Source: Bdellovibrionales bacterium (lineage in GTDB: Bacteria > Bdellovibrionota > Bdellovibrionia > Bdellovibrionales > UBA1609). Taken from it: a stretch of DNA of 32,000 nucleotides. Numbering within the stretch: the stretch's first letter is position 1; the number at the start of each line of letters is the position of its first letter. The translations under genes were made by a program, and so were the position numbers. This document shows positions 2,904-22,361 of this stretch, one piece after another. The notes beneath the pieces are model-generated. The model was not told the DNA's origin. It searched no databases and saw only the letters and a list, made by a program, of their open reading frames with translations. The stretch lies in assembly GCA_963692945.1 (NCBI GenBank), contig OY843585.1, positions 1,380,001 through 1,412,000 on the forward strand, given 5' to 3'.

Positions 2904-3506
2904 TTAAGTACAAGTTCCAGTAGAACTACCACACGTTCCACCAGAAATATATGTTCCAACACAAGTTCCACCAGTAGCAGGAGTTCCTGTTCCTGCTGTA
3001 GAAGTACAACCAGATGGAACTGGGGAAGTACAACCTAAAGCAGAATCTTGTAGATTCGAACATTGATTAGGCTTCCAGTTATTAGCAAGTGAAGAAGCTC
3101 CAGTTGTTGTAGCTATCTGAACACAAGTTTTTGCCGTTGTACCACCTATCTCTGCTTCTGCTGCTACACAAAAAGTATTAGCACCTACACCCACACGTGC
3201 ATTATTTGTTGTACTATCAATACAAGCTTCACAATTTATTCCTATAGCAGAGAGAGTTTGACAACTCGAAAAACCACTAACAGTTAAACAAGCTTGAAAA
3301 GCCTTACTTATATTATGCATTGAACCCAGTAAACTTTGTTGAGCTGCATTCGTTTGATACTTCTGATAGGCTGGTATCGCTACAGCAGCTAATACACCTA
3401 TAATAGCTACAACCACTAAAAGTTCTATCAAGGAAAACCCTTTTTTCCTATTTTGTTTTTTGTTCTTATTTGAAGGCTTGAACCAGCCTATTATTTTTAA
3501 GTCCAT
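2904..3506 (-). CDS. Type IV pilin-like protein with long (23-aa) leader and Cys/Gly/Thr-rich C-terminus
   Basis: The sequence ...KKQNRKKG|FSLIELLVVVAIIGVLAAVAIPAYQKY is a canonical prepilin motif. A strong RBS AAGGAGG lies upstream on the minus strand. The C-terminus is CTSPVPSGCTSTAGTGTPATGGTCVGTYISGGTCGSSTGTCT. Confidence 0.85.
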   Translation of the reverse strand: MDLKIIGWFKPSNKNKKQNRKKGFSLIELLVVVAIIGVLAAVAIPAYQKYQTNAAQQSLLGSMHNISKAFQACLTVSGFSSCQTLSAIGINCEACIDSTTNNARVGVGANTFCVAAEAEIGGTTAKTCVQIATTTGASSLANNWKPNQCSNLQDSALGCTSPVPSGCTSTAGTGTPATGGTCVGTYISGGTCGSSTGTCT

Positions 3507-4256: not shown

Positions 4257-4487
4257 ATGTCAGTGAAAAAGAAAAAAAAGAACCGACAATTAAACACAGA
4301 TAAGGGTGCAATAATAGGAGCAGGAACGGGAACTGTCTTAGGTTTAGCTAAGGGTGGTGCTATAGGGATCGCTAGCTTTGGTGGGGCTATCGGGTTGCCT
4401 TTAGTAGTTGCAGGAGCTGTTGTCGGTTTAGGTGTAGGTTGGACAGCTACTTATGCCTTTAATAAAATGAAAAAAAAGAAATCATAA
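4257..4487 (+). CDS. Glycine-zipper small membrane protein with Lys-rich tails
   Basis: An AAGGAG RBS is present. The core is GAIIGAGTGTVLGLAKGGAIGIASFGGAIGLPLVVAGAVVGLGVGW, flanked by KKKKKN and KMKKKKS. Confidence 0.6.
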   Translation: MSVKKKKKNRQLNTDKGAIIGAGTGTVLGLAKGGAIGIASFGGAIGLPLVVAGAVVGLGVGWTATYAFNKMKKKKS

Positions 4488-4918: not shown

Positions 4919-5029
4919 ATGTCAGTGAAAAAGAAAAAAAAGAACCAACAATTAAAAACAGAAAAGGGTGCAATAGTAGGAGCAGGAACGGGAGCTGTCT
5001 TAGGTTTAGCTAAAGGTGGTGCTGGCTGA
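4919..5029 (+). pseudogene. Truncated duplicate of the glycine-zipper gene (36 codons)
   Basis: 4905-5027 duplicates 4243-4365 (leader plus the first ~36 codons) with a few substitutions. Homology breaks after GGTGGTGCT, and the frame ends at TGA 5027-5029, at the start of the tandem repeats next to the tRNA fragment. Confidence 0.7.
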
Positions 5030-5178
5030 AAATTCTTAAAAGACAGGCAAGGGTCAAAATAATAAAAGGTTTATGAGTGGTGCTGGTTGAAAATTCTTAA
5101 AAGACAGGTAAGGGTTTCTTAAAAGACAGGCAAGGGTCAAAACAACAAAAATCTTTATGAGTGATACTGGTTGTCAAA
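5018..5178. repeat. Tandem ~61-nt repeat (about 2.3 units, with an internal 22-nt duplication) abutting the tRNA-Asp fragment
   Basis: Unit 1 is 5018-5078: GGTGCTGGCTGAAAATTCTTAAAAGACAGGCAAGGGTCAAAATAATAAAAGGTTTATGAGT. Unit 2 is 5079-5162 and carries TTCTTAAAAGACAGG(C/T)AAGGGT twice. A partial third unit, GATACTGGTTG, follows. Confidence 0.75.
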
Positions 5179-5243
5179 TGGCAGGAGTGGACGGGTTTTG
5201 AACCCGCGACCTCTGGCGTGACAGGTCGGCGTTCTAACCAGCT
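5179..5243 (-). pseudogene. Degenerate 3' fragment of tRNA-Asp (att-like direct repeat, distal island boundary)
   Basis: TGGCAGGAGTGGACGGGTTTTGAACCCGCGACCTCTGGCGTGACAGGTCGGCGTTCTAACCAGCT aligns to 13705-13768 of the intact tRNA-Asp, covering CCA end through D-arm. There are about 7 mismatches and 1 indel. The T-loop and anticodon stem are disrupted, and the 5' acceptor/D-stem part is missing. Confidence 0.8.
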
Positions 5244-5394
5244 TTATAAATAAAACCAGACCTTTATTATTTTTTTGTTGAAAAGACTTTATGTTTTATG
5301 TAAATTCTCCGAAGGTAATAATATACAAGGCTCTATCTTCCTTATTCCCAAGCTTGATAATCTGGTGAGGGTTGGCAGAGGAGCCATTTTTTTT

Positions 5395-6015
5395 ATGCAA
5401 AGAATAGCTTTTATTGTTGATGGTGGATATTTTTGCAAGAGATACAAAGTAAGATATAAAAAATATCCAAATGCAAATGATGTTGAGAAGTATATCACCT
5501 CTATTTTTAAGTATATAAAAAAAGAAAACTCTATACAAAATCTAGAAATATATAGAGTCTTTTATTACGATTGTCCTCCTATTGAGGTTGATTTTCTAAT
5601 ATCAAAATTAGAGAATAAGCAAATATCTACTGAAGATATGGAAAGGTTCTCTGATTATTACAAAGAACAACATAACAACATGAGAAATTTTCATAACAAT
5701 CTAAAAAGAAAAAACTATTTTGCTCTAAGAATGGGCATTTTGCAATTTAAAGGAATAAATGAAAAGTATAAAAAACCGATATTGAATCAAAAAGGAGTAG
5801 ATATGAGGATTGGTTTAGATATAGCTGATATAACTAGTAAAAAATTATGTTCTAAAATTGTTTTAATCTCAGGTGATACGGATATGATTCCAGCTATGAA
5901 AAAAGCAAGAAAAGAAGGCATCCATGTTTATTTGGATATTATGAACGATGCTAAATATACTCTTGATCTTGTTACTCATTCAGATGTCATTTTGAAAAAT
6001 AAAAGATTCATATAG
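5395..6015 (+). CDS. NYN-domain (LabA/DUF88-like) predicted RNase
   Basis: MQRIAFIVDGGYF... is a typical NYN N-terminus, and GVDMRIGLDIADI...IVLISGDTDMIPAMKKARKEGIHVY provides the acidic motifs. I chose ATG 5395 (GAGGAG upstream) over the track's TTG 5275, because the extra 40 aa start inside the att region and look non-coding. Confidence 0.7.
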   Translation: MQRIAFIVDGGYFCKRYKVRYKKYPNANDVEKYITSIFKYIKKENSIQNLEIYRVFYYDCPPIEVDFLISKLENKQISTEDMERFSDYYKEQHNNMRNFHNNLKRKNYFALRMGILQFKGINEKYKKPILNQKGVDMRIGLDIADITSKKLCSKIVLISGDTDMIPAMKKARKEGIHVYLDIMNDAKYTLDLVTHSDVILKNKRFI

Positions 6016-6109
6016 ATTACTGGGTAATATAAAACGCAACGCAAAACACTATTTAAAAATCAAAGAAAAATAAAAAATTATTTATTGAAGTCATCTTGAC
6101 TTTAATTAA

Positions 6110-6556
6110 ATGAACACCACATTAAATGGCATGATAGAAAAAGATTATTTAACTGACCGCTTAGATGACCAAATTAGATGGTATTCTTCAAAAAGTTCGA
6201 AGTGTAAAAAATGGTTTCTAATAATGCGTACGTTCGAAATCACTATTGCTGCTATTATTCCAGTGCTATTCTACCTTCCTGTCAAAAGTAGCATTCCATT
6301 CCTTAGTGCAATTATTATAATTTTAGTCAGTTTAATCAGTTTGTTTAAATTTCACGAAAATTGGCTTTTATATAGAACAACTAGCGAATCTCTAAAGCAC
6401 GAAAAATATCTCTATCTCACAAATACCAAACCATACAATAGAGAAAATAAACTGGTGATACTTGTACAAAATGTGGAAGAGATTATATCTTCAGAAAATA
6501 GTTTATGGAAACAAAAAACTTTATCTAATAACAATGAAGGAGGGTTAAGTAGATGA
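6110..6556 (+). CDS. SLATT-type (DUF4231-like) two-TM predicted effector
   Basis: LDDQIRWYSSKSSKCKKWF is followed by two hydrophobic helices (FEITIAAIIPVLFYL and FLSAIIIILVSLISLF). Then comes HENWLLYRTTSESLKHEKYLYL, the pattern I recall for DUF4231/SLATT. Confidence 0.65.
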   Translation: MNTTLNGMIEKDYLTDRLDDQIRWYSSKSSKCKKWFLIMRTFEITIAAIIPVLFYLPVKSSIPFLSAIIIILVSLISLFKFHENWLLYRTTSESLKHEKYLYLTNTKPYNRENKLVILVQNVEEIISSENSLWKQKTLSNNNEGGLSR

Positions 6557-7020
6557 AAATATTTATTAGTTACGACTATAGCAACGATGGGAAATACAAA
6601 AATATGCTTCTTGCTTGGGATGGAAATAAAAAATTTGACTTTAATTTCCATGATACTTCTGCTGATGTATCTATTAATAGTCATGATGCTGGCGTAATCA
6701 AAAGAGCTATTTCTGCAAAAATTAATGAGTCTGATATCGTTATTTGTATTATTGGAAATCAAACTCACAAGAGTAAATGGGTAGAGTGGGAAATAAACAA
6801 AACTGTCGATCTCAAAAAACCTATTGTTGCAGTAAAATTAGACACGAAATTTAAATCTCCGAATGTAATTCAAAATGTTGGTGCTAAATGGGCAATGACT
6901 TTTGATTTTGAATCGATCAAAAAAGCTATTGAGTTGCACCACTCCCAACCTAGCTTTACCATAAATAAGGGAGCAGCTGGTAATCCAAGTACACCCCCTC
7001 CTCCCCCTTGGAGTTACTAA
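6553..7020 (+). CDS. TIR-like domain protein (DUF1863 / ThsB-type)
   Basis: The start overlaps the SLATT stop (ATGA). MKIFISYDYSNDG..., SDIVICIIGNQTHKSKWVEWEINK and KPIVAVKL match the TIR-like (MTH538/DUF1863) pattern. The tail is Pro-rich (STPPPPPWSY). Confidence 0.65.
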   Translation: MKIFISYDYSNDGKYKNMLLAWDGNKKFDFNFHDTSADVSINSHDAGVIKRAISAKINESDIVICIIGNQTHKSKWVEWEINKTVDLKKPIVAVKLDTKFKSPNVIQNVGAKWAMTFDFESIKKAIELHHSQPSFTINKGAAGNPSTPPPPPWSY

Positions 7021-7021
7021 T

Positions 7022-7741
7022 TTGGATTGGGATTATTCTAAGGAAGACTCTTCTTTTCTCAAAGAACATCAGTCGGAATTAAGGTATGACCATTCAAAAA
7101 AAGTGTTACTTGGATGTTTACACTTTAAAGCTAAAAATTTTGATAAAGAAATTGAAGATCATTATGAGATAGAAATTGATTTTAATCAAACATGTCCTCT
7201 ACCTTCAGTTAAAGAAACAAATGGTAGAATTGAGCAAATAGCAAAAAAGAAAAATAAGAATCTTGTAGACCTCCATGTAGACACACCTGATAGAATGCTA
7301 TGCCTGTGCTCTAGAATAAAAGCATTTGAATATTCAGAAAAATTCAATATAAGTAATTCTCCTATTGCTGATTTTATTACAGATCTGATAATACCATTTT
7401 TTTATAGTTTAAGCTATTTTGAAAAATTTAACGAATATCCATTTGGAGAATTGAAACATGGTATCCCTGGGCTTGTTAAAGATATGAAAGATAATTTACC
7501 AATTTTTTTAAAATACTCAGATCAATATCAAGAAATGAAATCAACAGAATTCAATAATTTGATTAATAGTTATATTAAACAAGATACAAAACTAGCTGAA
7601 AAATGTAAGCCAATCTCCCGAAAAATTGGTCGGAATGAACGATGCCCTTGCGGCAGTGGTATTAAATATAAAAAGTGCCATATTGAAAAAAAACATTTAT
7701 TATTGATAGAGAAAATAAAAAATCACGTTAATCACCACTAA
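7022..7741 (+). CDS. SEC-C zinc-motif protein with N-terminal domain showing an E2/UBC-like signature (tentative)
   Basis: The TTG start is 1 nt after the upstream stop, with GGAG 8 nt upstream. There is no in-frame ATG for about 90 codons. The C-terminus RNERCPCGSGIKYKKCH is a SEC-C motif. The N-terminal YEIEIDFNQTCPLPSVKE...DLHVDTPDRMLCLCS resembles the E2 beta-sheet plus HPN-x-Cys loop. Confidence 0.55.
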   Translation: MDWDYSKEDSSFLKEHQSELRYDHSKKVLLGCLHFKAKNFDKEIEDHYEIEIDFNQTCPLPSVKETNGRIEQIAKKKNKNLVDLHVDTPDRMLCLCSRIKAFEYSEKFNISNSPIADFITDLIIPFFYSLSYFEKFNEYPFGELKHGIPGLVKDMKDNLPIFLKYSDQYQEMKSTEFNNLINSYIKQDTKLAEKCKPISRKIGRNERCPCGSGIKYKKCHIEKKHLLLIEKIKNHVNHH

Positions 7742-7971
7742 AAGGTTTTTATAAATGTGAAGTTAAACTTATGAGAAAGGGTAACCCTGAAAGTGCTGAT
7801 ACTGTAATAGCTAGAGATAGTAAGGTATTTATTGCTGACAAAACTATCAGAAACCAATAAAAATCAATTAGATAAGTTAAATATTCTATGGATGAAATTA
7901 AGAAATAAAAATGGCTTTATTTATCTGGATTTATTGAGGCAGAGGGCTATTTACAGATTAGCATATAGTAC

Positions 7972-8703
7972 TCATTTTTTACATAACCATTTGGAATAAG
8001 TTTTAATATCTATCATAGAAACAGTAGCTTTTAATTGTAATTGTGAAATAAAATAAAACAGAAATAATGTTGCAGATTCTTTCTTATTAAAAATCTCATA
8101 CTTCTTTTTCTTTTGATTATAAGAAAAATAGCCATGGGACAAAATACAACCTAAATCTAACACACCAACATCTTTTCTTTTATTAAGCGATTTTTCCAAA
8201 GATTTTCCTAAAGGCGTCTGCCAATCACTTTCAAAAGCTAAAATCCCTCCAGAAATATATGGAGGGTCTTTAGGTTCATATTCTCCTCCTGCATGTGGAA
8301 TAGGAAGACTAGTTCTAAATAATTTTCTTACACTTTCTATTTTTTTTTGAGCATAAGAAATTGCATCAGAATCAACTTTTTGCTTAACCTCAAATACAGC
8401 ATAAACACTTTCAGCGGGAAGAATAGTTACTTCATTAAACTTAAAGAGGATAGGAGAATATTGACGATCAAATATAACTATATCTATTTGCTCACTAAAA
8501 TTATTTTTACTATCAACAACATGAGCTCTTGTTGCTTGATAACGTTCGGGCAGATAGTTTTGAAAAATTTTTAACCATGCTTTTTCAGTAGAATCTCCTT
8601 TAACTACAGGGTGATAATTCATGTTTTTATAAGAAATCTCCAATTCATTTTGAATTGAACTATGTATGGAAGAAAAAATCTTACTTAAGGAACAATCTTT
8701 CAT
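7972..8703 (-). CDS. nucC: CBASS effector endonuclease NucC (restriction-endonuclease fold)
   Basis: It is 243 aa and is the last gene of the operon, with an ATGA overlap with the AAA+ gene. The PD-(D/E)xK-type motif is QIDIVIFDRQYSP...AESVYAVFEVKQ. SLPIPHAGG and FESDW strings match what I recall of NucC. Confidence 0.8.
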   Translation of the reverse strand: MKDCSLSKIFSSIHSSIQNELEISYKNMNYHPVVKGDSTEKAWLKIFQNYLPERYQATRAHVVDSKNNFSEQIDIVIFDRQYSPILFKFNEVTILPAESVYAVFEVKQKVDSDAISYAQKKIESVRKLFRTSLPIPHAGGEYEPKDPPYISGGILAFESDWQTPLGKSLEKSLNKRKDVGVLDLGCILSHGYFSYNQKKKKYEIFNKKESATLFLFYFISQLQLKATVSMIDIKTYSKWLCKK

Positions 8704-9632
8704 ATAGAATCCTCTCTAAAAGGTGGTGTGGGAATAATCTGTTTTGCAATTTCTATAGCACGCTTTGGTTCAATAGCTTTATCAGGGTAGGCATCAATTA
8801 TAATTTGAGATAATAGTCGATGAGTCAAATCAGAAAATGTAAAGCCATAATTACGAACTTTATTTTTTCCTGTAGCTTCTACAATAGATTCAATATTTTT
8901 TTCAGAAAAACCAAAGTCTTTTAAAAACTGTAGCAATAAGAATCGCTGTTTTTCATCTGGTCTTTTAAAAGTTAAAATATTTGTGGAACGACGTTTTATT
9001 GCTGGATCAAGAGCATTAGTTCTATTGGTACACATTATTATTACTACAGGTATTTTATTGTTTTTAATCTTATCAATACCTCGAATAAAGGCATTAACCC
9101 CTGCTCGATCTTCATGATGCATTTGCATTGTCTCTCTTGACTGAGCTAAAGCATCAGCTTCATCTATAAGAAAAATGATAGCTCCACTACATTTATCTTT
9201 TTGTTTTAACTTTTGAGCTTCAGAAGTTACATGATTAAAAGCACTTGATAAGAGTTGTGTCATTTCACCAACCCTTCCTCTTCCTCGTGTTGAAAGACTT
9301 AATGGAAACAATGTAATATTAAGATTTTCTTTTCTTGCCACAGCATCACCTATTGTTTCTGCCAACTCAGATTTTCCACAACCAACATCACCCTCAAGGA
9401 CAACTAAAGGAGAGATTCTAAACAATGCATTTAATGAATCTTTAGAACTTTTTGGATGATATTTTTTAATCCATGTTTCCATGCCAGAATAATTAATTAT
9501 TAAGCTTATTATTTTCATCAAATTTGTTTTATGATTATCTAATCCAACCAATTGATCAAATCGCTCCTTATAATCAATATCAGGGTATTGAATATGTTTT
9601 TCAAATAACTCATTCATGCTTGGTTGATTCAT
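8700..9632 (-). CDS. cap6: CBASS TRIP13/Pch2-like AAA+ ATPase (Cap6)
   Basis: Walker A is GDVGCGKSELAE and Walker B is AIIFLIDEADAL. It is 310 aa and sits between the HORMA-size gene and nucC. Confidence 0.8.
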   Translation of the reverse strand: MNQPSMNELFEKHIQYPDIDYKERFDQLVGLDNHKTNLMKIISLIINYSGMETWIKKYHPKSSKDSLNALFRISPLVVLEGDVGCGKSELAETIGDAVARKENLNITLFPLSLSTRGRGRVGEMTQLLSSAFNHVTSEAQKLKQKDKCSGAIIFLIDEADALAQSRETMQMHHEDRAGVNAFIRGIDKIKNNKIPVVIIMCTNRTNALDPAIKRRSTNILTFKRPDEKQRFLLLQFLKDFGFSEKNIESIVEATGKNKVRNYGFTFSDLTHRLLSQIIIDAYPDKAIEPKRAIEIAKQIIPTPPFREDSI

Positions 9633-9636
9633 AGTT

Positions 9637-10149
9637 CTAACTCCTTAAAATTTTTCTTGTTATACTTCTTCCTCCCGAAGAGTATGTAAGATCTTCAATA
9701 AAACTTCCTTTAAAAGATGGCTCTTGTCCAACTACTCTTGAAAATGGAAATGATTTTTGAATTGTGTTTTGTTCTTCCGGTGATAACTTATACCATTTTT
9801 GATTATATTCTAAAAAACTAGTAAAATGTGCACCAGAAACATCTGCCCATGGAGGAATTTTTCCTGGATCATCATCATCTCCACAGTCTATCATTAACTT
9901 ATCAGAAGTATATTCTAAAGTTTGTTCAATATATTGTTCATCTTTTTTAAAGCCATAAATAACAAATTTAAAAATATTGTGCATTAACAGTATAACAACT
10001 TCCTTGTAATACTGTTCAATTTCATGATCGCTTGGTGCTCCATAAAGTCTTTGGATGCGTTTTAAGTCAGTCTGTATTTTACTTGCTAAATACCCCGCAT
10101 TTGTTTTTGTAAAAACTTCAGTGTCTGATTCAGTATAACTATAACTCAT
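9637..10149 (-). CDS. cap7: CBASS HORMA-domain protein (Cap7)
   Basis: It is 170 aa and sits immediately downstream of the CD-NTase (GGAGGA RBS) and upstream of TRIP13, the canonical type III CBASS position and size. I cannot verify the fold by eye. Confidence 0.65.
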   Translation of the reverse strand: MSYSYTESDTEVFTKTNAGYLASKIQTDLKRIQRLYGAPSDHEIEQYYKEVVILLMHNIFKFVIYGFKKDEQYIEQTLEYTSDKLMIDCGDDDDPGKIPPWADVSGAHFTSFLEYNQKWYKLSPEEQNTIQKSFPFSRVVGQEPSFKGSFIEDLTYSSGGRSITRKILRS

Positions 10150-10160
10150 TATATTCCTCC

Positions 10161-11117
10161 CTATTTAAAAAAAGATGATCCAAAAATTTTTTGCCAATAA
10201 TATACCGTCTTTTGTTTTGTAGTAGCGTATAGGGCAGCGTCTATAGCATCTCCAGCTTCTAAAGATTTTTCAACAATTATACTAACCATTTCTTTAGAAT
10301 AATTTTTACTTACATTATTACTCTTATTCACAGGGTCAATAATTTGCACTGGATCATCAAAACTTTCTAAATATACTGCTTCATAGTAATCAAAAAACTC
10401 TATACGCTTTTGCAACTGACTTGTAGCAATGTAAGTGAAAAAATGTTGAAGAACCTCAGGATAATCAGAGAAATCGAAACCCTTATCTAAAAGATGAGCT
10501 AATATGATCTCTACCATAAAAGATTTGAATTTGAAATCAGGGTTTTCTCGTTTTGTTTTTTGTATCCAAAATTTTATCAAACGAACTATTTGCGAAAAAT
10601 GCTCACACTTTTCTTTTCTCTTTTGTATAAACTTAATGTGTCTTAGAATATTAGTTTTAAGGAGAGTTCCATCCTCTTGACTTATTAAATCACCGTCCCA
10701 ATTTGAATCACCATTATATAAAATAGGTACAATATCAACATCTAGACCTGTGCCACGAAATGATATTTTCAAGCTATAGTTTTGACATGTAATTTGATCA
10801 CTATTGAAATTGGGAAATTTTGAACATAAATAATTAGATAAGTCTTGTAATAAATTTTGAATATTAAATTCTTCACCTTTTATATAACAAGCCACATCTA
10901 TATCATTCAATGATCGTAAAGCTGTTCCTTTAGCTAAGCTCCCAGATAAGATCATTTTCCTTAATTTGAAATCTGGATTAGTACCAAGATATTCCTCTAA
11001 TTTCTCTCTTAAATTTCTCACTTGAGCACGATATTTATCAGATTTGTCTTTTGGTAAGTTAACTTGATTCTGAGCAAAATTAACTATCTCTTTGTGGTTT
11101 ACATATTCCCTTGACAT
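10161..11117 (-). CDS. cdnC: cGAS/DncV-like nucleotidyltransferase (CD-NTase, CdnC-like)
   Basis: The Pol-beta NTase active-site pattern is present: GSLAKGTALRSLNDIDVACY (G-S...DxD) with a third acidic motif GLDVDIVP. It is 318 aa and is the first gene of a four-gene operon. Confidence 0.8.
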   Translation of the reverse strand: MSREYVNHKEIVNFAQNQVNLPKDKSDKYRAQVRNLREKLEEYLGTNPDFKLRKMILSGSLAKGTALRSLNDIDVACYIKGEEFNIQNLLQDLSNYLCSKFPNFNSDQITCQNYSLKISFRGTGLDVDIVPILYNGDSNWDGDLISQEDGTLLKTNILRHIKFIQKRKEKCEHFSQIVRLIKFWIQKTKRENPDFKFKSFMVEIILAHLLDKGFDFSDYPEVLQHFFTYIATSQLQKRIEFFDYYEAVYLESFDDPVQIIDPVNKSNNVSKNYSKEMVSIIVEKSLEAGDAIDAALYATTKQKTVYYWQKIFGSSFFK

Positions 11118-11270
11118 AAGCTTCCTTCCTTTTAGGTATTATTCTCAATTTAATAATGCTATATTAACATAATGATAATAAAAGTCAAGCAAAAAATTTT
11201 CAATCTGTAAATTTTTTATTTCCTATCCGTAAATTTGATGATAATCTATAAATAAAATAAGGAGGAAAGG
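11118..11270. promoter_or_regulatory. Divergent cdnC / capH promoter-operator region
   Basis: This is a 153-bp intergenic region between divergent operons. Direct repeats CTGTAAATTT (11205-11214) and CCGTAAATTT (11227-11236) are 22 nt apart, just upstream of a TATAAA box (11247-11252) and the capH RBS AAGGAGGA. Confidence 0.4.
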
Positions 11271-11624
11271 ATGAAAAAACTCAATAAAGACACTATAAAA
11301 AAGAGAATTACTACAGAAAGAGAGAAAAGAGGTTGGACACAGGCTGAGCTAGCTAAAAAAGCAAGAATCACTCCTGCTGCTATATGTCAAATTGAAAAAG
11401 GAGATCGCACACCAACAATTCCCGTTCTCCATCGAATAGCTCAAGTTCTTCAAGTTTCATTAGATTATTTAGCTGGATATAAAGATTCTGTAGAACAAGA
11501 GGATGTTCAAAAGAATTCAGAGTTAAAAGTATTTTTCAGAAAATACAGAAAACTTGATCAAAAAGATAAAGAATTTATTGAAACCTACATTCATACAATA
11601 TCAAAAACAAAGGAAAAAAAATAA
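11271..11624 (+). CDS. capH: XRE-family HTH repressor (CapH-like CBASS regulator)
   Basis: The HTH is WTQAELAKKARITPAAICQIEKGDRTPTIPVLHRIAQVLQVSLDYL. It is divergent from the CBASS operon and its stop overlaps the peptidase start (TAATG). Confidence 0.75.
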   Translation: MKKLNKDTIKKRITTEREKRGWTQAELAKKARITPAAICQIEKGDRTPTIPVLHRIAQVLQVSLDYLAGYKDSVEQEDVQKNSELKVFFRKYRKLDQKDKEFIETYIHTISKTKEKK

Positions 11625-12490
11625 TGTGTCCTAAAAAGGAAGCTGGAAAAATTTTGGAAGAGATGGGAATAGATGAACTACCTATTGATCCTGTAAAAAT
11701 TATTGATTCTTTAGATATTAAAAGAATGGATCATGATTTTAATAGTATTGAAGGGTTTTCTTTTTTTGACCCTAAAAACAAGAAATTTCATATAGGTGTA
11801 AACTCTCAAATCACAAACCTGCAAAGAAAAAAATTCACCTATGCTCATGAATTAGGACATGTATGTTTAGATGGAGGCAACCTTAATAGTTGCCAACAAA
11901 GTGATATTAATTGTTTTAAAAGGTTAGATCCAAGTGAAATAAATGCTAATACATTTGCCAGCCACTTATTACTTCCTGAGTCTTTAATAAAAGATAAAAT
12001 CAAGGGCATAGAACCAAGCTGGGATGAAATTTCCAAACTGTCTAAGATAACACAAACATCTTTAATAACAGCTGCCACTCGTTTTATTGAACTTACTGAT
12101 CATATATGTTTATTAGCTGTAATTGGAGAAAATAAATGTATTAAATATTTTAAAAAATCTCAAAGTTGGTTTTTGCATTTTGATATGAATAGTCGCATTA
12201 TTGCTACTGAATCTTGTACACATAAATCTTTTTTAAGAAAGGAGTCCTCTGACTTTACAAATATTCAAGCTAACCTTTGGATAGATGATAAAAGAGTATC
12301 TCCTGATGCTCAACTTTTGGAATGGTCACTCCCTATCAATTCTTATCGAGAAGTATTAACTCTTCTTTGGGATGATGAAGGGCTTTTAGAAAGTAATGAA
12401 TATGAAAATAATCAGATATTTCATGACAACACTAATAAAATAGGAGGAGTTTGGTCTCCACCTACATTCCATAAAAGTAAAAGAAAATAA
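11624..12490 (+). CDS. capP: ImmA/IrrE-family Zn-metallopeptidase (CapP-like CBASS regulator)
   Basis: The HExxH motif is FTYAHELGHVCL, with the downstream ANTFASHLLLPE typical of the ImmA/IrrE family. It is 288 aa with a C-terminal domain of about 150 aa. Confidence 0.75.
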   Translation: MCPKKEAGKILEEMGIDELPIDPVKIIDSLDIKRMDHDFNSIEGFSFFDPKNKKFHIGVNSQITNLQRKKFTYAHELGHVCLDGGNLNSCQQSDINCFKRLDPSEINANTFASHLLLPESLIKDKIKGIEPSWDEISKLSKITQTSLITAATRFIELTDHICLLAVIGENKCIKYFKKSQSWFLHFDMNSRIIATESCTHKSFLRKESSDFTNIQANLWIDDKRVSPDAQLLEWSLPINSYREVLTLLWDDEGLLESNEYENNQIFHDNTNKIGGVWSPPTFHKSKRK

Positions 12491-12530: not shown

Positions 12531-12597
12531 GCCATTTTTTTATGTAAAGAATAGCTTTTATTGATGGTGGATGTTTTTTTGCAAGAGATACAAAGTA
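12531..12597 (+). pseudogene. Remnant of an NYN gene 5' end (direct repeat of 5383-5451)
   Basis: GCCATTTTTTTATGTAAAGAATAGCTTTTATTGATGGTGGATGTTTTTTTGCAAGAGATACAAAGTA aligns with 5383-5451. Codon 2 is now TAA (ATGCAA -> ATGTAA), and there are a 3-nt deletion and T-run length changes. Confidence 0.75.
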
Positions 12598-12672: not shown

Positions 12673-13230
12673 ATGAGCATTCAAGAGACCGAAGAAATTA
12701 CTTTTAATTGTACACATGGAACATTTAAATCTAATAGTAATAAAATACTTGAAGATAGATTTAATTTTAGCGATGGCACTTGTGGTGAAGCTGTCTATTT
12801 TTGGACTGGTATTGATGGTTTTATAATAGACTTAGCTAAGGATTGGGTTAACTTAAAAAAGAAAAAAACTGAAAATGAAGGTGCTGTCATTAGTTGTAAA
12901 ATAAAAGTTCCTGAACATAGTATAATCGACCTTTCTTCGTTTGAGATGATTAAAGAATACAGCAATTTTATTTTAAAAAAGGGGCATAAAAATTTATGCA
13001 ATTTAAATAAAAAAAGCAGAATCACTATATTAAAAGATTTCTTAGAGACTTTTACTTTTGAAAGTGGAAGAGATTATATTTGCTACCTGACAAGACATTT
13101 TATGGAAACAGATGAAAATTTTACATTTCCTGTTAAAATTTTTGGACACCCCTTTTGTTTGGTTGTAAAGTCACTAGAAGTTATTCCTCGTAATTTAATT
13201 TCTAGTGACTTTACTATCACTCAAAAATAA
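12673..13230 (+). CDS. Hypothetical protein with ADP-ribosyltransferase-like H-Y-E signature (tentative)
   Basis: NCTHGTFKSNSNKILEDRFNFSDGTCGEAVYFW fits the HG(S/T)-x(8-10)-I-x(3)-F ... G-x-x-(V/I)-Y-F pattern of PARP/DarT-like ARTs. A possible catalytic Glu lies in KSLEVIP. The gene is preceded by a GTCCGATA box. Confidence 0.35.
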   Translation: MSIQETEEITFNCTHGTFKSNSNKILEDRFNFSDGTCGEAVYFWTGIDGFIIDLAKDWVNLKKKKTENEGAVISCKIKVPEHSIIDLSSFEMIKEYSNFILKKGHKNLCNLNKKSRITILKDFLETFTFESGRDYICYLTRHFMETDENFTFPVKIFGHPFCLVVKSLEVIPRNLISSDFTITQK

Positions 13231-13704: not shown

Positions 13705-13781
13705 TGGCGGGGTGGACGGGACTCGAACCCGCGACCTCCGGCGTGACAGGCCGGCGTTCTAACCAGCTGAACTACCACCCC
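13705..13781 (-). tRNA. tRNA-Asp (anticodon GTC)
   Basis: The reverse complement is GGGGTGG TA GTTC AGCTGGTTA GAAC G CCGGC CTGTCAC GCCGG AGGTC GCGGG TTCGAGT CCCGT CCACCCC G CCA. This is a full cloverleaf of 77 nt with an encoded CCA. Confidence 0.95.
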
Positions 13782-13980
13782 AAAGATTTAAAATCTCTAG
13801 TCTGTTTTTAGATATACTATAATAACCTATTTATTCAATAAATATTTGCTTACTATAGTAAGTGTCTCAATTTGTTCCATTAAAAAAAGCCTTGTTTATC
13901 CAAATTCCATAAAAAAAATTTGTTTTATGTATGTTATGGTCCATAATTTTATTTTGAACACATAAAAAAAGGAATTGATT

Positions 13981-14634
13981 ATGATCAATATAAAAAGAGA
14001 ATCTCGCTCTTGCTTTAGAAAAAATAAAGGGTTTTCACTAATAGAGTTACTTGTAGTTGTAGCCATTATTGGAATTTTAGTTGCTGTGGCTATACCAACA
14101 TACAGTCACTATAAAGTAGATGCCGCTCAATCTTCATTGACGGCTTCTCTACACTCTGTCGGAAAGGCATTTGCTGCTTGTCTTGCATTGAGATCCTTTA
14201 GTAATTGTAACAGCCTATCAGAATTGAAAGTGAGTTGTCCGGACTGTACTAAAGAATCCACTGGAAGAACCGCTATACCTTATTGTGTTGAAGCTAAATT
14301 ACAAGCAGGAGGAATAAACCATAAGGCATGTATGTCTTCTTCGGGAGGAATTCCTTCAATTACTGGTAACTGGGACAGTCTTTGTAAAGATGTAATAGCA
14401 GTTTATATTTGTGACAATGATGGTTTTGGATTTATTCCATTAAATCCAACTGTTTGTAGTCAGATAGGTTGTCTTAACCCATCTGCAATTAAGCCAAAAA
14501 ATAATCAACAGAAATGCAACGCAAATATTGAACGTGCATACCATAATTGTGGTGATGATAATAACCCTGAAGCTCGTTCAAGACATAGTAGTTTTGTTGG
14601 AAATTGTGATGTTAATACTGGACTGTGTAGTTAA
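13981..14634 (+). CDS. Type IV pilin paralog A (17-aa leader, Cys-rich)
   Basis: MINIKRESRSCFRKNKG|FSLIELLVVVAIIGILVAVAIPTY. ATG 13981 has AGGA 7 nt upstream and is preferred over the track's TTG 13975. The first ~130 aa are almost identical to 15022-15672, and the C-terminal ~85 aa are divergent. Confidence 0.85.
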   Translation: MINIKRESRSCFRKNKGFSLIELLVVVAIIGILVAVAIPTYSHYKVDAAQSSLTASLHSVGKAFAACLALRSFSNCNSLSELKVSCPDCTKESTGRTAIPYCVEAKLQAGGINHKACMSSSGGIPSITGNWDSLCKDVIAVYICDNDGFGFIPLNPTVCSQIGCLNPSAIKPKNNQQKCNANIERAYHNCGDDNNPEARSRHSSFVGNCDVNTGLCS

Positions 14635-14729: not shown

Positions 14730-15021
14730 ATATTTATTAGCTAAACTTTTTATCTACTTTGGAACTTCTAAACAACTTTATAAAGATTGATTCTTGAACT
14801 TGATAAGTTTCTACCTAGAATTTTTAAAAAATAGAGATTTCAATATCAAGTGTTAAACTATTGAGCTGTAATAAAAGTGTCTCAATTTGTTTCACTGAAA
14901 AAAGTGTCTCAATTTGTTTTACTAAAAAAGCCTTAGTTTATTTGATTCTATAAAAAAATTTTTAATTTATGTATCTAATGAGTCATAATTTTATTTTAAA
15001 CAATAACAAAAGGAGTTAATG

Positions 15022-15672
15022 ATGTTTAACATAAATAAAAAGGTTCGTTCTTGCTTTAGAAAGAATAAAGGATTTTCACTAATAGAATTACTTGTAGTTG
15101 TAGCAATTATTGGAATTCTAGTTGCTGTGGCTATACCAACATACAATCACTATAAAGTGGATGCTGCTCAATCTTCATTGACAGCCTCTCTACACTCTGT
15201 CGGAAAAGCTTTTGCTGCTTGTCTTGCATTGAGATCTTTTAGTAATTGCAATAGTCTATCAGAGCTGAAAGTGAGTTGTCCTGACTGTACTAAAGAATCC
15301 ACTGGAAGAACGGCTATACCTTATTGTGTTGAAGCTAAATTACAGGCAGGAGGAATAGACCATAAGGCATGTATGTCTTCTTCAGGAGGAATTCCTTCAG
15401 TTACTGGTAACTGGAATGGTCTTTGTAAGAACATGTCAGTAACCTACGTTTGTAATGCTACAGGTAATGGATATGATCCAGCAACTACAACTTGTAGGAA
15501 TATAGGTTGTAATAATCCATCTCAAGCTATCCCATCAATACCAGGAGGTGTATGTACACCAAATGTTGGTAGTCTCAACCATAACTGTGGTGATGACAAT
15601 AATCCTGAAGCTCGTTCAACAGCTAGTAATCTTAATGGAAGTTGTGACACTACAACTGGATTATGTAGTTAA
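15022..15672 (+). CDS. Type IV pilin paralog B (17-aa leader, Cys-rich)
   Basis: MFNINKKVRSCFRKNKG|FSLIELLVVVAIIGILVAVAIPTY. The AGGAG RBS at 15011-15015 favours ATG 15022 over 15019. The C-terminal region is variable but retains HNCGDDNNPEARS and the ...TGLCS end. Confidence 0.85.
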   Translation: MFNINKKVRSCFRKNKGFSLIELLVVVAIIGILVAVAIPTYNHYKVDAAQSSLTASLHSVGKAFAACLALRSFSNCNSLSELKVSCPDCTKESTGRTAIPYCVEAKLQAGGIDHKACMSSSGGIPSVTGNWNGLCKNMSVTYVCNATGNGYDPATTTCRNIGCNNPSQAIPSIPGGVCTPNVGSLNHNCGDDNNPEARSTASNLNGSCDTTTGLCS

Positions 15673-19084: not shown

Positions 19085-19882
19085 ATGGTAAGTGTATTTT
19101 TAAGAAGAGGGTCATTTACTCTTTCTTGTTTTTTCTTAATATTCAGCTCACTAGCTCAAGGCACAGGTTTAAAAAGCAGTGAGAAATGTTACCTTTCTTT
19201 TAACCAAGATATTAGAAAAAGTGTAGATGTAGATGTAAATTCAGCATTCACTCTTCAAATAAATAAATTAATAAATGGAAATTTTAAAAAAGAGAGTCTT
19301 TTCACTTTAAAACAAGGGTTGAAGAGTAAACAGATCTCTGTGCGTGAAACAGTTGTTAATCAAACTTATAAACTGATAAAATCATCTTTGAAAGAAGAAG
19401 ATTTTAAGACTGTGAATCAAGGATTTACTATTTTAAAACAGGGAATGAATGATAGTTCTGCATCCATACGCTTTATAATTACACATCAAATGGGTGATTT
19501 GATAAAACTAAATAAGATACAGGAAACGGAACTTTTTTCTTTTTTAAAACGAGGAGTAAAAGATGCAAACCAATCTGTGCGTAAAAAAACGTTTGATCAA
19601 ATTTATAAATTGATAAATTTATCTATAAAAGAAGGTATGAGAAAAGGATTCTATGTAGATCTTGTGCTTATAGATCAAGGAATTACCATTTTAAAACGAG
19701 CAATGAAAGATGAAAATCCAGATGCACGTAAAGCAGCTATCCAGCAATTGGATACAATAGCAGCGGATCTAATAAAATTAGACTTCAAAAAAGAAGTTCT
19801 CTCTATTTTAAATGAGGGCATGAAAAGTAGATATAAGACGATACGTGATCTTTCAGAAAAAACCTATAACAAGCATTTCTAA
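19085..19882 (+). CDS. Secreted HEAT-like repeat protein (short paralog without the N-terminal domain)
   Basis: The signal peptide is FTLSCFFLIFSSLAQG. It has divergent repeats of the form LKQG(L/M)K....(V/I)R......Q...LIK. The last 27 aa are near-identical to the C-terminus of the next gene. Confidence 0.6.
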   Translation: MVSVFLRRGSFTLSCFFLIFSSLAQGTGLKSSEKCYLSFNQDIRKSVDVDVNSAFTLQINKLINGNFKKESLFTLKQGLKSKQISVRETVVNQTYKLIKSSLKEEDFKTVNQGFTILKQGMNDSSASIRFIITHQMGDLIKLNKIQETELFSFLKRGVKDANQSVRKKTFDQIYKLINLSIKEGMRKGFYVDLVLIDQGITILKRAMKDENPDARKAAIQQLDTIAADLIKLDFKKEVLSILNEGMKSRYKTIRDLSEKTYNKHF

Positions 19883-19884
19883 AA

Positions 19885-22359
19885 ATGAAACGGTTACTTA
19901 CTTTTTCATGTTTCTGCTTTCTATTAAGTTCTTTGTCTTATGCTACAAGTTCTTCTGAAGATCTTAACATCTGTTATTTTTCTTTAAACAATGAAAAAGA
20001 ATTTCAAGAGATGGAGAGATTTACAGAAAAACTAAAAAAAGATTCTTCTGTTATTTCTGTAAAAGAGTATATGGAAAATGGAAAAGATCCAAAAGACTCT
20101 TTTAAAAAAATGTTAGAAAGCAAAGATCGTTGTGATGGAGTTGTTATTTCAGGTCATCACACAGGAGCTTTTGGAGGAAAAAGAGCAAACGGAAATTTAG
20201 ATATTAACTTTTTAGAAGAGATGTCTTGTAAAGAAGAATACAAACCCTTTTTCTTAAAAGTTAAATCTCTATGGCTTCAAGGTTGTAGAACTTTAGGAGT
20301 AGGAGAGTATCAAACAAGAGGTGAAGAAACTGCAGACTTCCATACAAATAGAGTAGGAGCTGTGTTAGAAGAAGATCATCTGGAACAATCTTTAGCCGAG
20401 TTGAATGTGGAGTTTTCAGAAGTTTTAGATGCTGATAATACTCTACCCTCTCGTTATTTAAGAGTGTTTCCACAAGCAACAGTATTTGGTTGGACAAGAT
20501 CTGCTCCAGGGGATATATCAGGAAGTCAGTACTCTATCCCTTTTCATATAGCTCATGTGGCTCAAACAAGAAACTCTCAACTTCCAGAAGAAAGTCCTAT
20601 TAAACAATCTTGGAAAGAGTCTTCTTCCATACTTTATAAAGAATCTTTAGAGAGTTTATTTTATCCCTCAACAAACAATCAATGTGTAGAGAGTGTAGAA
20701 AGTAAACAAGAAGAAGTTTGCACAAACATAGGTGTTGCAGCTTGGAAAAGCCATGGGAATGTTTTAGATCAAGATAAAGAATATGGATTTCTCAATCCTG
20801 ATTTACAAGCTTACTCTTCTCTTTCTCAAATGGATGAGCTAGATGGTTCTATTTTAAAAACAGCTCATAGCTACACTTGTTTGATTAGGAATAAACCAGA
20901 AGAAATATTTGAAGTTTTAGATGATATATTAGAAAAACCAGAAATCCTTCGTTACACTTACAATTCTTTATTTCATACATTGAAGAATTTAAAAAAATAT
21001 AAAAAAGATGAAGAAGAGTTTAGAAGAAACAAAGAACTTTATTTTGAACTGATTGAGACTTTAAAACAAAGTGAAAACATGAATGAGTTTCTCTATAAGA
21101 AGTTAACAGGAAAGAGAATTGGAGTTTTATCTAAGATAGATTACTTAGCTTTTTATCAAGAGCTTTATGGTAAGAAAGAAAAACTAAACTCTATTCTTAT
21201 AGATAAAGTTGTACAAATTTTTAAAAAACCTTATTCCTCTAACCGTTCTAGTCGTTCTAATGAAATAGATTATAAATTAACTCTTATTAACGCTTTAAAA
21301 GAGAATGGATATTTTAAAGATAAGAAGGGAGTTCTTGTTTTAAACCAAGGAATAAAAGATGAGGATCATCAAGTACGTTATGCTGTTATTTCTCAAACGG
21401 ATGAATTGATAAAAGCAGATATGAAAGAAGAAGCTCTTTCTATTTTAGATCAAGGCATGAAAGATGAGGATAGATATGTAGTTTTAACCACTCTTCGTAG
21501 AACAAACAAATTGATAGAAGCAGACATGAAAAAAGAAGCTCTTTCCTTTTTAAATCAAGGAATAAGAAGTAAGGATGGGACTATACGCTCAATAGTTATT
21601 CATCAAACAGATGAATTGATAAAATTAGGAATGAAAAAAGAAGCTCTTTCACTTTTAAAACAAGGAATGAAAGATGAGCATAGAGTCGTACGTGAAGCAG
21701 TTATTCATAAAACGGATAATTTGATAAAATTAGGAATGAAAAAAGAAGCTCTTTCCTTTTTAAAACAAGAAATGAAAGATGAGAATAGAGTTGTACGTGC
21801 AGCCGTTATTGATCAAATGGATGATTTGATAAAAGCAGGAATGAAAAGACAGGCTCTTTCACTTTTAAAACAAGGAATGAAAGATGAACATCATGAGGTA
21901 CGTGAAGCCGTTATTCGTAAAACAGATAATTTGATAAAATTAGGAATGAAAAAAGAATATCTTTCCTTTTTAAAACAAGAAATGAAAGATGAGAATAGAG
22001 TTGTACGTGCAGCCGTTATTAATCAAATGGATGATTTGATAAAAGCAGGAATGAAAAAAGAAGCTCTTTCTTTTTTAAATCAAGGAATCAAAGATGAGAA
22101 TAGAATTGTACGTCAGTTAGTTATTCGTCAAACGGATGAATTGATAGAAGCAGGAATGAAAAAAGAAGCTCTTTCCTTTTTAAAACAAGGAATAAAAGAT
22201 GAGAATCATAAAGTACGTAGATTCGTTATTTCTCAAACAGATGAATTGATAAAATTAGGAATGAAAAAAGAAGCTCTCTCTATTTTAAATGAGGGCATGA
22301 AAAGTAGATATAAGACGATACGTGATCTTTCAGAAGAAACCTATAACAAGTATTTCTAA
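19885..22359 (+). CDS. Secreted protein: caspase-like (clan CD-type His/Cys) N-terminal domain plus 9.7 HEAT-like 35-aa repeats
   Basis: The signal peptide is MKRLLTFSCFCFLLSSLSYATSS. DGVVISGHHTG (H91/H92) and SLWLQGCRTLG (C134) are 42-43 aa apart, each preceded by a hydrophobic strand. Repeats run from codon 486 (nt 21340). The start is 2 nt after the previous stop. Confidence 0.6.
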   Translation: MKRLLTFSCFCFLLSSLSYATSSSEDLNICYFSLNNEKEFQEMERFTEKLKKDSSVISVKEYMENGKDPKDSFKKMLESKDRCDGVVISGHHTGAFGGKRANGNLDINFLEEMSCKEEYKPFFLKVKSLWLQGCRTLGVGEYQTRGEETADFHTNRVGAVLEEDHLEQSLAELNVEFSEVLDADNTLPSRYLRVFPQATVFGWTRSAPGDISGSQYSIPFHIAHVAQTRNSQLPEESPIKQSWKESSSILYKESLESLFYPSTNNQCVESVESKQEEVCTNIGVAAWKSHGNVLDQDKEYGFLNPDLQAYSSLSQMDELDGSILKTAHSYTCLIRNKPEEIFEVLDDILEKPEILRYTYNSLFHTLKNLKKYKKDEEEFRRNKELYFELIETLKQSENMNEFLYKKLTGKRIGVLSKIDYLAFYQELYGKKEKLNSILIDKVVQIFKKPYSSNRSSRSNEIDYKLTLINALKENGYFKDKKGVLVLNQGIKDEDHQVRYAVISQTDELIKADMKEEALSILDQGMKDEDRYVVLTTLRRTNKLIEADMKKEALSFLNQGIRSKDGTIRSIVIHQTDELIKLGMKKEALSLLKQGMKDEHRVVREAVIHKTDNLIKLGMKKEALSFLKQEMKDENRVVRAAVIDQMDDLIKAGMKRQALSLLKQGMKDEHHEVREAVIRKTDNLIKLGMKKEYLSFLKQEMKDENRVVRAAVINQMDDLIKAGMKKEALSFLNQGIKDENRIVRQLVIRQTDELIEAGMKKEALSFLKQGIKDENHKVRRFVISQTDELIKLGMKKEALSILNEGMKSRYKTIRDLSEETYNKYF
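21340..22359 (+). repeat. In-frame 105-bp tandem repeat array (about 9.7 units) encoding HEAT-like repeats
   Basis: The consensus is L(N/K)QG(M/I)KDE..xVRxxVIxQ(T/M)DxLI(K/E)xGMK(K/E)EALS(F/L/I). Confidence 0.9.
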
Positions 22360-22361
22360 AA

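Follow-up and report, generated by a model that had tools for sequence, protein, structure and literature searches.

A type VII Thoeris pair with an added single-E2 gene, a probable three-gene anti-phage operon in a Bdellovibrionales defence island

We analysed a 32,000-nt stretch of the Bdellovibrionales contig OY843585.1 (hereafter the window; coordinates are window positions), checking both the listing of its open reading frames (ORFs) and the raw sequence. The genes at 6110-7741 probably form a three-gene anti-phage operon, in which a type VII Thoeris core is joined by an added single-E2 regulator of the kind known from type II-short cyclic oligonucleotide-based anti-phage signalling systems (CBASS), also called E2-CBASS, and in which this regulator would act via a C-terminal tail of the ThsB protein. 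We give this reading a probability of roughly 0.7. A first-pass annotation had proposed a candidate module composed of an NYN RNase gene and three coupled genes, described as unnamed and uncharacterised. The three-gene unit proved to be real, the NYN gene turned out not to be a member, and the description was outdated for two of the three genes, since SLATT plus ThsB corresponds to type VII Thoeris (bioRxiv 10.64898/2025.12.03.692087). The third protein is not uncharacterised as a family either: it belongs with the E2s of type II-short E2-CBASS, among which a Serratia protein has a known structure and published biochemistry.

The three ORFs are all present on the forward strand. They are predicted to encode a ThsH-like SLATT/DUF4231 effector with two transmembrane segments (6110..6556, 148 amino acids, aa), a ThsB-type TIR signal synthase (6553..7020, 155 aa), and a single-E2 protein with a C-terminal helical region and a SEC-C zinc knuckle (7022..7741, 239 aa, TTG start). 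The SLATT stop codon (TGA, 6554-6556) and the TIR start (ATG, 6553-6555) overlap in an ATGA; the TIR stop (TAA, 7018-7020) is separated by one base from the TTG at 7022, with a GGAG at 7010-7013. These junctions, to which the first-pass annotation had already drawn attention, were confirmed in the sequence and indicate that the three genes are translationally coupled. The TTG at 7022 is the sole plausible start of the E2 gene because no in-frame Met occurs before residue 92 and the alignment with homologues already begins at residue 4. A promoter scan of the region gave no excess of sites over a shuffled control, and nothing resembling a terminator turned up in 5200-8100, so the operon boundaries were placed from spacing alone.

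The SLATT, TIR-like, SEC-C and NYN assignments proposed earlier all held, with profile matches exceeding the curated cut-offs. The SLATT protein matched DUF4231 (PF14015, 9e-22), PF18181 (3e-10) and SLATT_1 (NF033634, 3e-35), and has two hydrophobic segments with centres near residues 44-56 and 61-77. It was 49-60% identical to the SLATTs of the other triplets described below and 45% identical, over the full length, to that of a two-gene SLATT-ThsB operon devoid of E2 (L034; L-numbers are our locus handles), an operon that sits within a prophage-like region. The TIR protein matched ThsB_TIR (PF08937, 7e-22), the PADLOC ThsB model (5e-19) and, by sequence, the PDB entries 8fz9 and ThsB 6lhy/9b7d; its best Foldseek match was 8fz9, a B. 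cereus TIR (1.6e-4). Glu80 in the WVEWEI motif (codon 6790..6792, forward strand) is the predicted catalytic glutamate. It was invariant in 21 of 21 homologues and aligned with the Glu of RRWVRYEI in B. cereus ThsB 6lhy/9b7d, a position which we take to be the catalytic Glu of ThsB.

When the TIR was compared with 15 reference TIRs from all Thoeris types (Table S1 of bioRxiv 10.64898/2025.12.03.692087), type VII gave the best matches: the three Bacillus type VII ThsBs were 49% identical (E 1e-33 to 1e-41; B. licheniformis SCCB37 ThsB, 49%, E 2e-33), versus at most 32% for representatives of the other types. Type VII Thoeris, reported by the Sorek laboratory in December 2025 (Yirmiya et al., bioRxiv 10.64898/2025.12.03.692087), consists of a ThsB TIR and a SLATT effector named ThsH. 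In these systems canonical cyclic ADP-ribose (cADPR) is made in a phage-dependent manner and added cADPR specifically arrests growth. Defence was shown for systems from an Alteromonadales scaffold, Pseudohongiella and Bacillus licheniformis SCCB37, and cells carrying the last of these are killed by added cADPR (same preprint). Judged by profile matches and identities, the SLATT and TIR pair of the window is a type VII Thoeris pair (ThsH/ThsB), and by analogy canonical cADPR is the most likely signal of its ThsB.

The first-pass annotation had guessed that the third protein is E2-like, and this guess was borne out. The protein was matched over nearly its whole length by six PADLOC E2 models and by one E1-E2 model (the best being PDLC00872, 2e-26, residues 9-224) and carries the conserved residues His85 and Cys94. 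Its AlphaFold2 model, built on 16 homologues, was confident, with a predicted local distance difference test score (pLDDT) of 86. In it a helix at the N-terminus precedes a sheet of four strands, and the loop bearing Cys94 comes next, then the helical region and finally the knuckle. The best Foldseek matches of this model in the PDB were E2 enzymes, with E values of 0.06-0.3 and none at or below 0.001; they included UFC1 (E 0.06, probability 0.99) and chain B of 8yjy, the Serratia marcescens CdnG-E2 complex (20% identity). From its profiles and conserved residues, the third protein is assigned to the family of single E2s known from E2-CBASS.

Among 1.84 billion cluster representatives, a HMMER scan recovered 735 relatives of the E2/SEC-C protein at E <=1e-10, just 9 of them at <=1e-30; a scan of viral contigs found none. 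Across the best 150 family representatives, Cys94 was conserved in 100%, His85 and His146 each in 99%, and the four zinc ligands in 93-95%, the knuckle being present in 131, including E2s of genuine E2-CBASS operons. On the forward strand, the active-site stretch from His85 (7274-7276) to Cys94 (7301-7303) occupies 7274..7303, the His146 codon, in a conserved PFGE..HG..G motif, 7457..7459, and the SEC-C knuckle 7631..7681 (residues 204-220; ligands C208, C210, C219 and H220; PF02810, 2.5e-9; SecA zinc-binding peptides in the PDB at 2e-5). Both Cys residues of the MLCLC motif had been suggested as targets for mutation, and only the first (C94) was conserved family-wide. In the Serratia E2, H87 and C101 are needed for covalent capture and for cleavage of residues or fusions from the cyclase C-terminus (Xiao et al., PMC12948482; Yan et al., bioRxiv 10.1101/2022.05.25.493364), H152 tunes bond interconversion, and the enzyme has a protease-like activity (same papers). 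His85 and Cys94 would be analogous to H87 and C101, and His146 is possibly the counterpart of H152.

The close E2 family was small, with 19 matches in a set of 5.8 billion proteins. Co-conservation of the three genes, suggested earlier as a check, was evident: the order SLATT, ThsB_TIR, E2/SEC-C was the same in all ten distinct loci with readable context (the window, L001, L002, L003, L004, L005, L009, L037, L038 and L041), with junctions of 0-4 nt. The flanks were unrelated between loci, often with restriction-modification, toxin-antitoxin or Abi genes. The triplet is thus a conserved unit, with the NYN gene and the adjacent CBASS outside it. Where titles were available, the loci came from Bdellovibrionales metagenome-assembled genomes (MAGs), which were also the closest ones, and from one MAG labelled Thermodesulfobacteriota. 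In L038, from a contig with 1x coverage, a frameshift splits the E2 gene. At L037 (3072-4305), a divergent pair encoding a helix-turn-helix protein and a Peptidase_M78 protein, resembling capH/capP, lies immediately upstream of the triplet, which hints that some copies may be under transcriptional control of the CapH/CapP type.

The strongest clue to the target of the E2 was a feature missed in the first pass, the C-terminal tail of ThsB (residues 133-155; 6949..7017, forward strand), which carries I137-x-K139-G140 and P149-x-x-P152-W153. AlphaFold2 predicted the TIR domain confidently and the tail as disordered (pLDDT <50). We surveyed the best 120 TIR homologues. Short proteins, almost all of 129-133 aa, made up 105 of them and ended right after the last TIR helix (..SIKKAIE.A) with no tail. 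Another 14, of 155-167 aa, had an added linker, then [FL]-x-I-x-[KT]-G, 9-12 residues, P-[SP]-x-P-W and 2-3 further residues; the tails of E2-linked ThsBs were 25-35 aa long. The remaining homologue (143 aa, without tail) came from an E2-bearing contig and may be truncated. Every tail-bearing ThsB with a readable neighbourhood was followed by an E2 gene, and tail-less ThsBs were found without E2 in three independent contexts (L033, L034, and L035/36, where the effector is a TPR-S protein). At L035 (2304-4399) and L036, the tail-less protein is a close ThsB homologue, arranged as ThsB, TPR-S protein, ThsB beside a type I restriction system; the same TIR clade works there with a different effector.

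The same tail occurred on CD-NTases. When genome and metagenome collections were scanned with the E2 alignment, partner assignments being confirmed by PADLOC and Pfam, E2/SEC-C proteins of greater divergence (aligning at 23-35% identity) were found in genuine E2-CBASS operons. On many contigs of gut Firmicutes (L011-L013, L017-L031) the operon consisted of a CD-NTase, an E2 and a four-transmembrane (4TM) effector; L016 had a divergent CD-NTase next to its E2, and L014 a patatin, CD-NTase, E2 arrangement. The cyclases of three divergent lineages ended in ..P-[ST]-K-P-W.. or ..N-P-W.., C-termini next to E2/SEC-C genes being ..IITPTKPWKK, ..ISKPSKPWGMHE and ..RPRVTNPWSRISSDGTYK. The effectors of these P-W-tailed cyclases were 4TM or patatin proteins, not SLATT. 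As the same P-W tail is found with differing effectors and synthases, the common factor is the E2/SEC-C protein. The simplest reading is that the SEC-C-bearing E2 clade recognises the P-W tail, and that a type VII ThsB acquired tail and E2 jointly from a cyclase setting. Separately, at two loci (L039:3720-4705 and L040:70-1070) an ORF of 93-98 aa without Pfam match precedes a distant E2/SEC-C relative with a start-stop overlap. The 93-aa ORF ends in ..ISDSPRKAWCV; such ORFs may encode a small partner bearing the tag, or what is left of a larger protein.

All four Pro codons were used for the Pro before Trp and three for the Pro at -4, and this synonymous variation indicates that the P-W motif is maintained as protein sequence. 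Trp was mostly followed by AGY, AAT or AAG; the Trp codon and the following one (TGG AGY or TGG AAT; window 7007-7024, with equivalents in L001-L038) form GGAG or GGAA, placed 7-10 nt ahead of the E2 start codon. The loci L013, L014 and L016 break this pattern yet keep P-W. We considered whether the motif could be a mere by-product of a Shine-Dalgarno sequence; we rejected this for Pro and Trp, and the residue after Trp may be under a second constraint from ribosome binding. Weak E2 start codons were frequent, with TTG or GTG in 4 of 9 tabulated triplet junctions, 0-3 nt past the ThsB stop. The overlap of the Trp codon with GGAG and the weak E2 starts close to the ThsB stop suggest reinitiation-type coupling and dual coding.

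We propose the following mechanism. Upon infection, ThsB would use Glu80 to make a signal of the cyclic ADP-ribose kind from NAD+, canonical cADPR being the most likely product. The signal would bind the SLATT protein, which would oligomerise in the membrane and kill or arrest the cell (abortive infection). The E2/SEC-C protein, made in step with ThsB through translational coupling, would engage the disordered ThsB tail (I-x-K-G ... P-x-x-P-W) with its His85/Cys94/His146 site. As the Serratia E2 does with its cyclase, it might trim the tail and hold or conjugate ThsB covalently, thereby setting a threshold for, or priming, signal production. We infer that the E2 acts on the ThsB tail, whether activating or restraining. 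The present analysis established what the domains are, that the three genes are conserved together, that the tail goes with the E2, and that TIRs and cyclases have the tail motif in common; cADPR signalling, killing by SLATT and the cleavage or conjugation chemistry of the E2 were drawn from the literature on homologues. The first-pass working model, with a TIR signal, a SLATT membrane effector and an E2/SEC-C regulator, is the reading favoured by the evidence.

Several observations weigh against this interpretation. The structural support for the UBC fold was weak (the Foldseek values given above), hhalign of the E2 family profile against an approximate human UBE2D2 sequence was not significant, only the YEIEIDF strand being aligned, and PDB sequence searches with the protein and its profile matched the SEC-C knuckle alone. 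Since the fold evidence is consistent but weak, E2-family membership was based on the PADLOC profiles together with residue conservation. The ThsB tail also lacks a terminal Gly, a residue both conserved and needed in the Serratia E2-CBASS and the Cap2/Cap3 systems: ThsB tails end in P-W-x(2-3), and the sole invariant Gly (G140) is 15 residues from the end. The conjugation chemistry may thus differ or be absent; the bond could form at Trp, or at G140 once a longer piece has been cleaved off, or docking could be purely non-covalent. Conservation of the residue after Trp could partly reflect a ribosome-binding site, and the signal molecule was deduced from 49%-identical relatives. Finally, only about 10 loci, most of them from Bdellovibrionales-like MAGs, make up the TIR-linked E2 clade, and the co-occurrence statistics therefore rest on few independent lineages.

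Alternatively, the E2/SEC-C protein could be a phage sensor or adaptor which does not touch the ThsB tail, for instance by binding a phage protein via its helical or SEC-C region, the tail serving, for example, contact with SLATT or the membrane. The knuckle and the helical region 98-194 are indeed conserved and were not found in the 157-aa Serratia E2, and the E2-CBASS literature gives no known trigger acting on the E2. We nevertheless consider this possibility unlikely, because the tail was seen only where the E2 is present and also on cyclases with 4TM or patatin effectors, which leaves the E2 as the common factor.

Another alternative concerns the output of the TIR. Many bacterial TIRs are NADases, and the TIR could be an NAD+-depleting effector, or the pair could be toxin-antitoxin-like, with no diffusible signal and with the E2 acting only as a maturation factor of the protease type, for which the protease-like Serratia E2 offers a precedent. 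The 49%-identical relatives, however, make cADPR only upon infection and cADPR specifically triggers their SLATT partners, so that we regard this alternative as quite improbable.

The NYN gene (5395-6015, forward strand; PF01936, 5e-9) lies 94 nt upstream of the SLATT gene on the same strand, with no terminator-like site found between them, and matches the PADLOC NYN model (2e-7). A four-gene NYN-SLATT-TIR-E2 system with the NYN RNase as second effector is nonetheless very improbable, the gene being present in 0 of the 9 other triplet loci. Furthermore, the initial 64 nt of the NYN gene, together with the T-run upstream of it (5388-5451), are repeated at 12535-12597 just past capP, with an early stop (ATG TAA), which points to the NYN gene as part of the island's flanks or scars. 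The repeat suggests a recombination scar, defence cargo having been swapped in between NYN-derived sequences. The ORF at 12673-13230 was considered as a second NYN copy and rejected for want of similarity, the repeat being limited to 64 nt of the NYN 5' end.

As proposed in the first pass, the triplet lies in a tRNA island next to a CBASS. This 8.5-kb island is bracketed by an intact tRNA-Asp (13705-13781, reverse strand) and by a 60-nt tRNA-Asp 3' fragment on the same strand (5184-5243, 90% identical), an arrangement resembling att sites; no integrase was seen inside. Besides the triplet and the NYN gene, the island contains a complete type III CBASS with capH/capP (7972-12490). NucC (7972-8703), TRIP13 (8700-9632), HORMA (9637-10149) and the CD-NTase (10161-11117) are on the reverse strand, and capH (11271-11624) and capP (11624-12490) are divergent from them. 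That the E2/SEC-C gene serves this CBASS as part of a hybrid type II/III system, as its 230-nt distance from the NucC gene and the otherwise CBASS-associated E2 family might suggest, is hardly credible, as the E2 gene and the CBASS operon are convergent, the CD-NTase ends in ..KIFGSSFFK without a P-W tail, this CBASS already has HORMA/TRIP13 regulators, and the triplet occurs without CBASS at all nine other loci.

Outside the island, the window contains pilin-like, HEAT-repeat and housekeeping genes. Three of the genes flanking the island are pilin-like and carry motifs for N-terminal methylation (2904-3506, 13975-14634 and 15019-15672), and three consecutive HEAT/TPR-repeat proteins (265, 824 and 1362 aa) without defence-model match are encoded at 19085-26450. 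A small Gly-rich ORF at 4257-4487 (MSVKKKKK..GAGTG..) has a truncated second copy at 4920-5030, and three 39-nt direct repeats (5016-5137) lie just before the tRNA fragment.

The window operon can be compared with four known kinds of system. It shares with type VII Thoeris the adjoining SLATT and ThsB_TIR genes, the catalytic Glu, a 49% identical TIR and a location in a defence island, whereas the published systems have two genes and the window adds the coupled E2/SEC-C gene and the ThsB tail. With the Serratia marcescens E2-CBASS (CdnG-E2, PDB 8yjy) it shares the PADLOC E2 family, the His...Cys...His signature, an E2 gene directly after the signal-synthase gene and a C-terminal tail on the synthase. 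In contrast, the window synthase is a TIR and its operon has no CD-NTase, the only one nearby being in the separate convergent type III CBASS; the Serratia tail ends with the conserved Gly plus one residue rather than P-W plus 2-3, and the Serratia E2 has about 160 aa versus 239 aa, the window protein having the extra helical region and the SEC-C knuckle. The Thoeris operons with Cap2 and Cap3 (Fig. 6F/S10A of bioRxiv 10.64898/2025.12.03.692087) likewise place a ubiquitin-like conjugation accessory from CBASS on Thoeris, together with a tailed ThsB, but they encode an E1-E2 fusion and a JAB peptidase and have a Gly-containing tail, whereas the window has an E2 only, no E1 or JAB, and the P-W tail. 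Lastly, the SEC-C-bearing E2-CBASS operons from gut Firmicutes and other metagenomes (L011-L031, L014 and L016 among them) have the same E2/SEC-C architecture and a partner with a P-x-x-P-W C-terminus; they differ in the CD-NTase partner, the 4TM or patatin effectors, and the order synthase-E2-effector instead of effector-synthase-E2.

Type VII Thoeris and E2-CBASS are thus known, and the new elements are the E2-only accessory on Thoeris and the E2-linked P-W tail. Full-text literature searches, whose coverage was incomplete, brought up no account of either an E2-only Thoeris or the P-W tail, and no paper linking SEC-C to a CBASS E2.

If our interpretation is correct, the E2 regulatory layer of CBASS would not be tied to cyclases, E2 and recognition tail having moved together onto a Thoeris TIR. 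Two-gene and three-gene type VII Thoeris would then form a natural matched pair for the contribution of the E2, be it a threshold, priming, or protection from phage counter-defence. The P-W tail of TIRs and cyclases would provide a mutable handle on substrate choice and processing by single E2s, a question raised in the E2-CBASS papers. A broader and tentative possibility is that the SEC-C E2 clade, with several hundred clusters at 50% identity, reads a portable P-x-x-P-W tag rather than a Gly, tag and E2 being a travelling cassette that controls CD-NTases, TIRs and possibly the 93-aa protein. Should this be so, and should the bond lie at or next to Trp, there would be ubiquitin-like processing or conjugation without C-terminal Gly, E1 or ATP. 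In either case, the operon may bear on how ubiquitin-like machinery came to join immune signalling enzymes.

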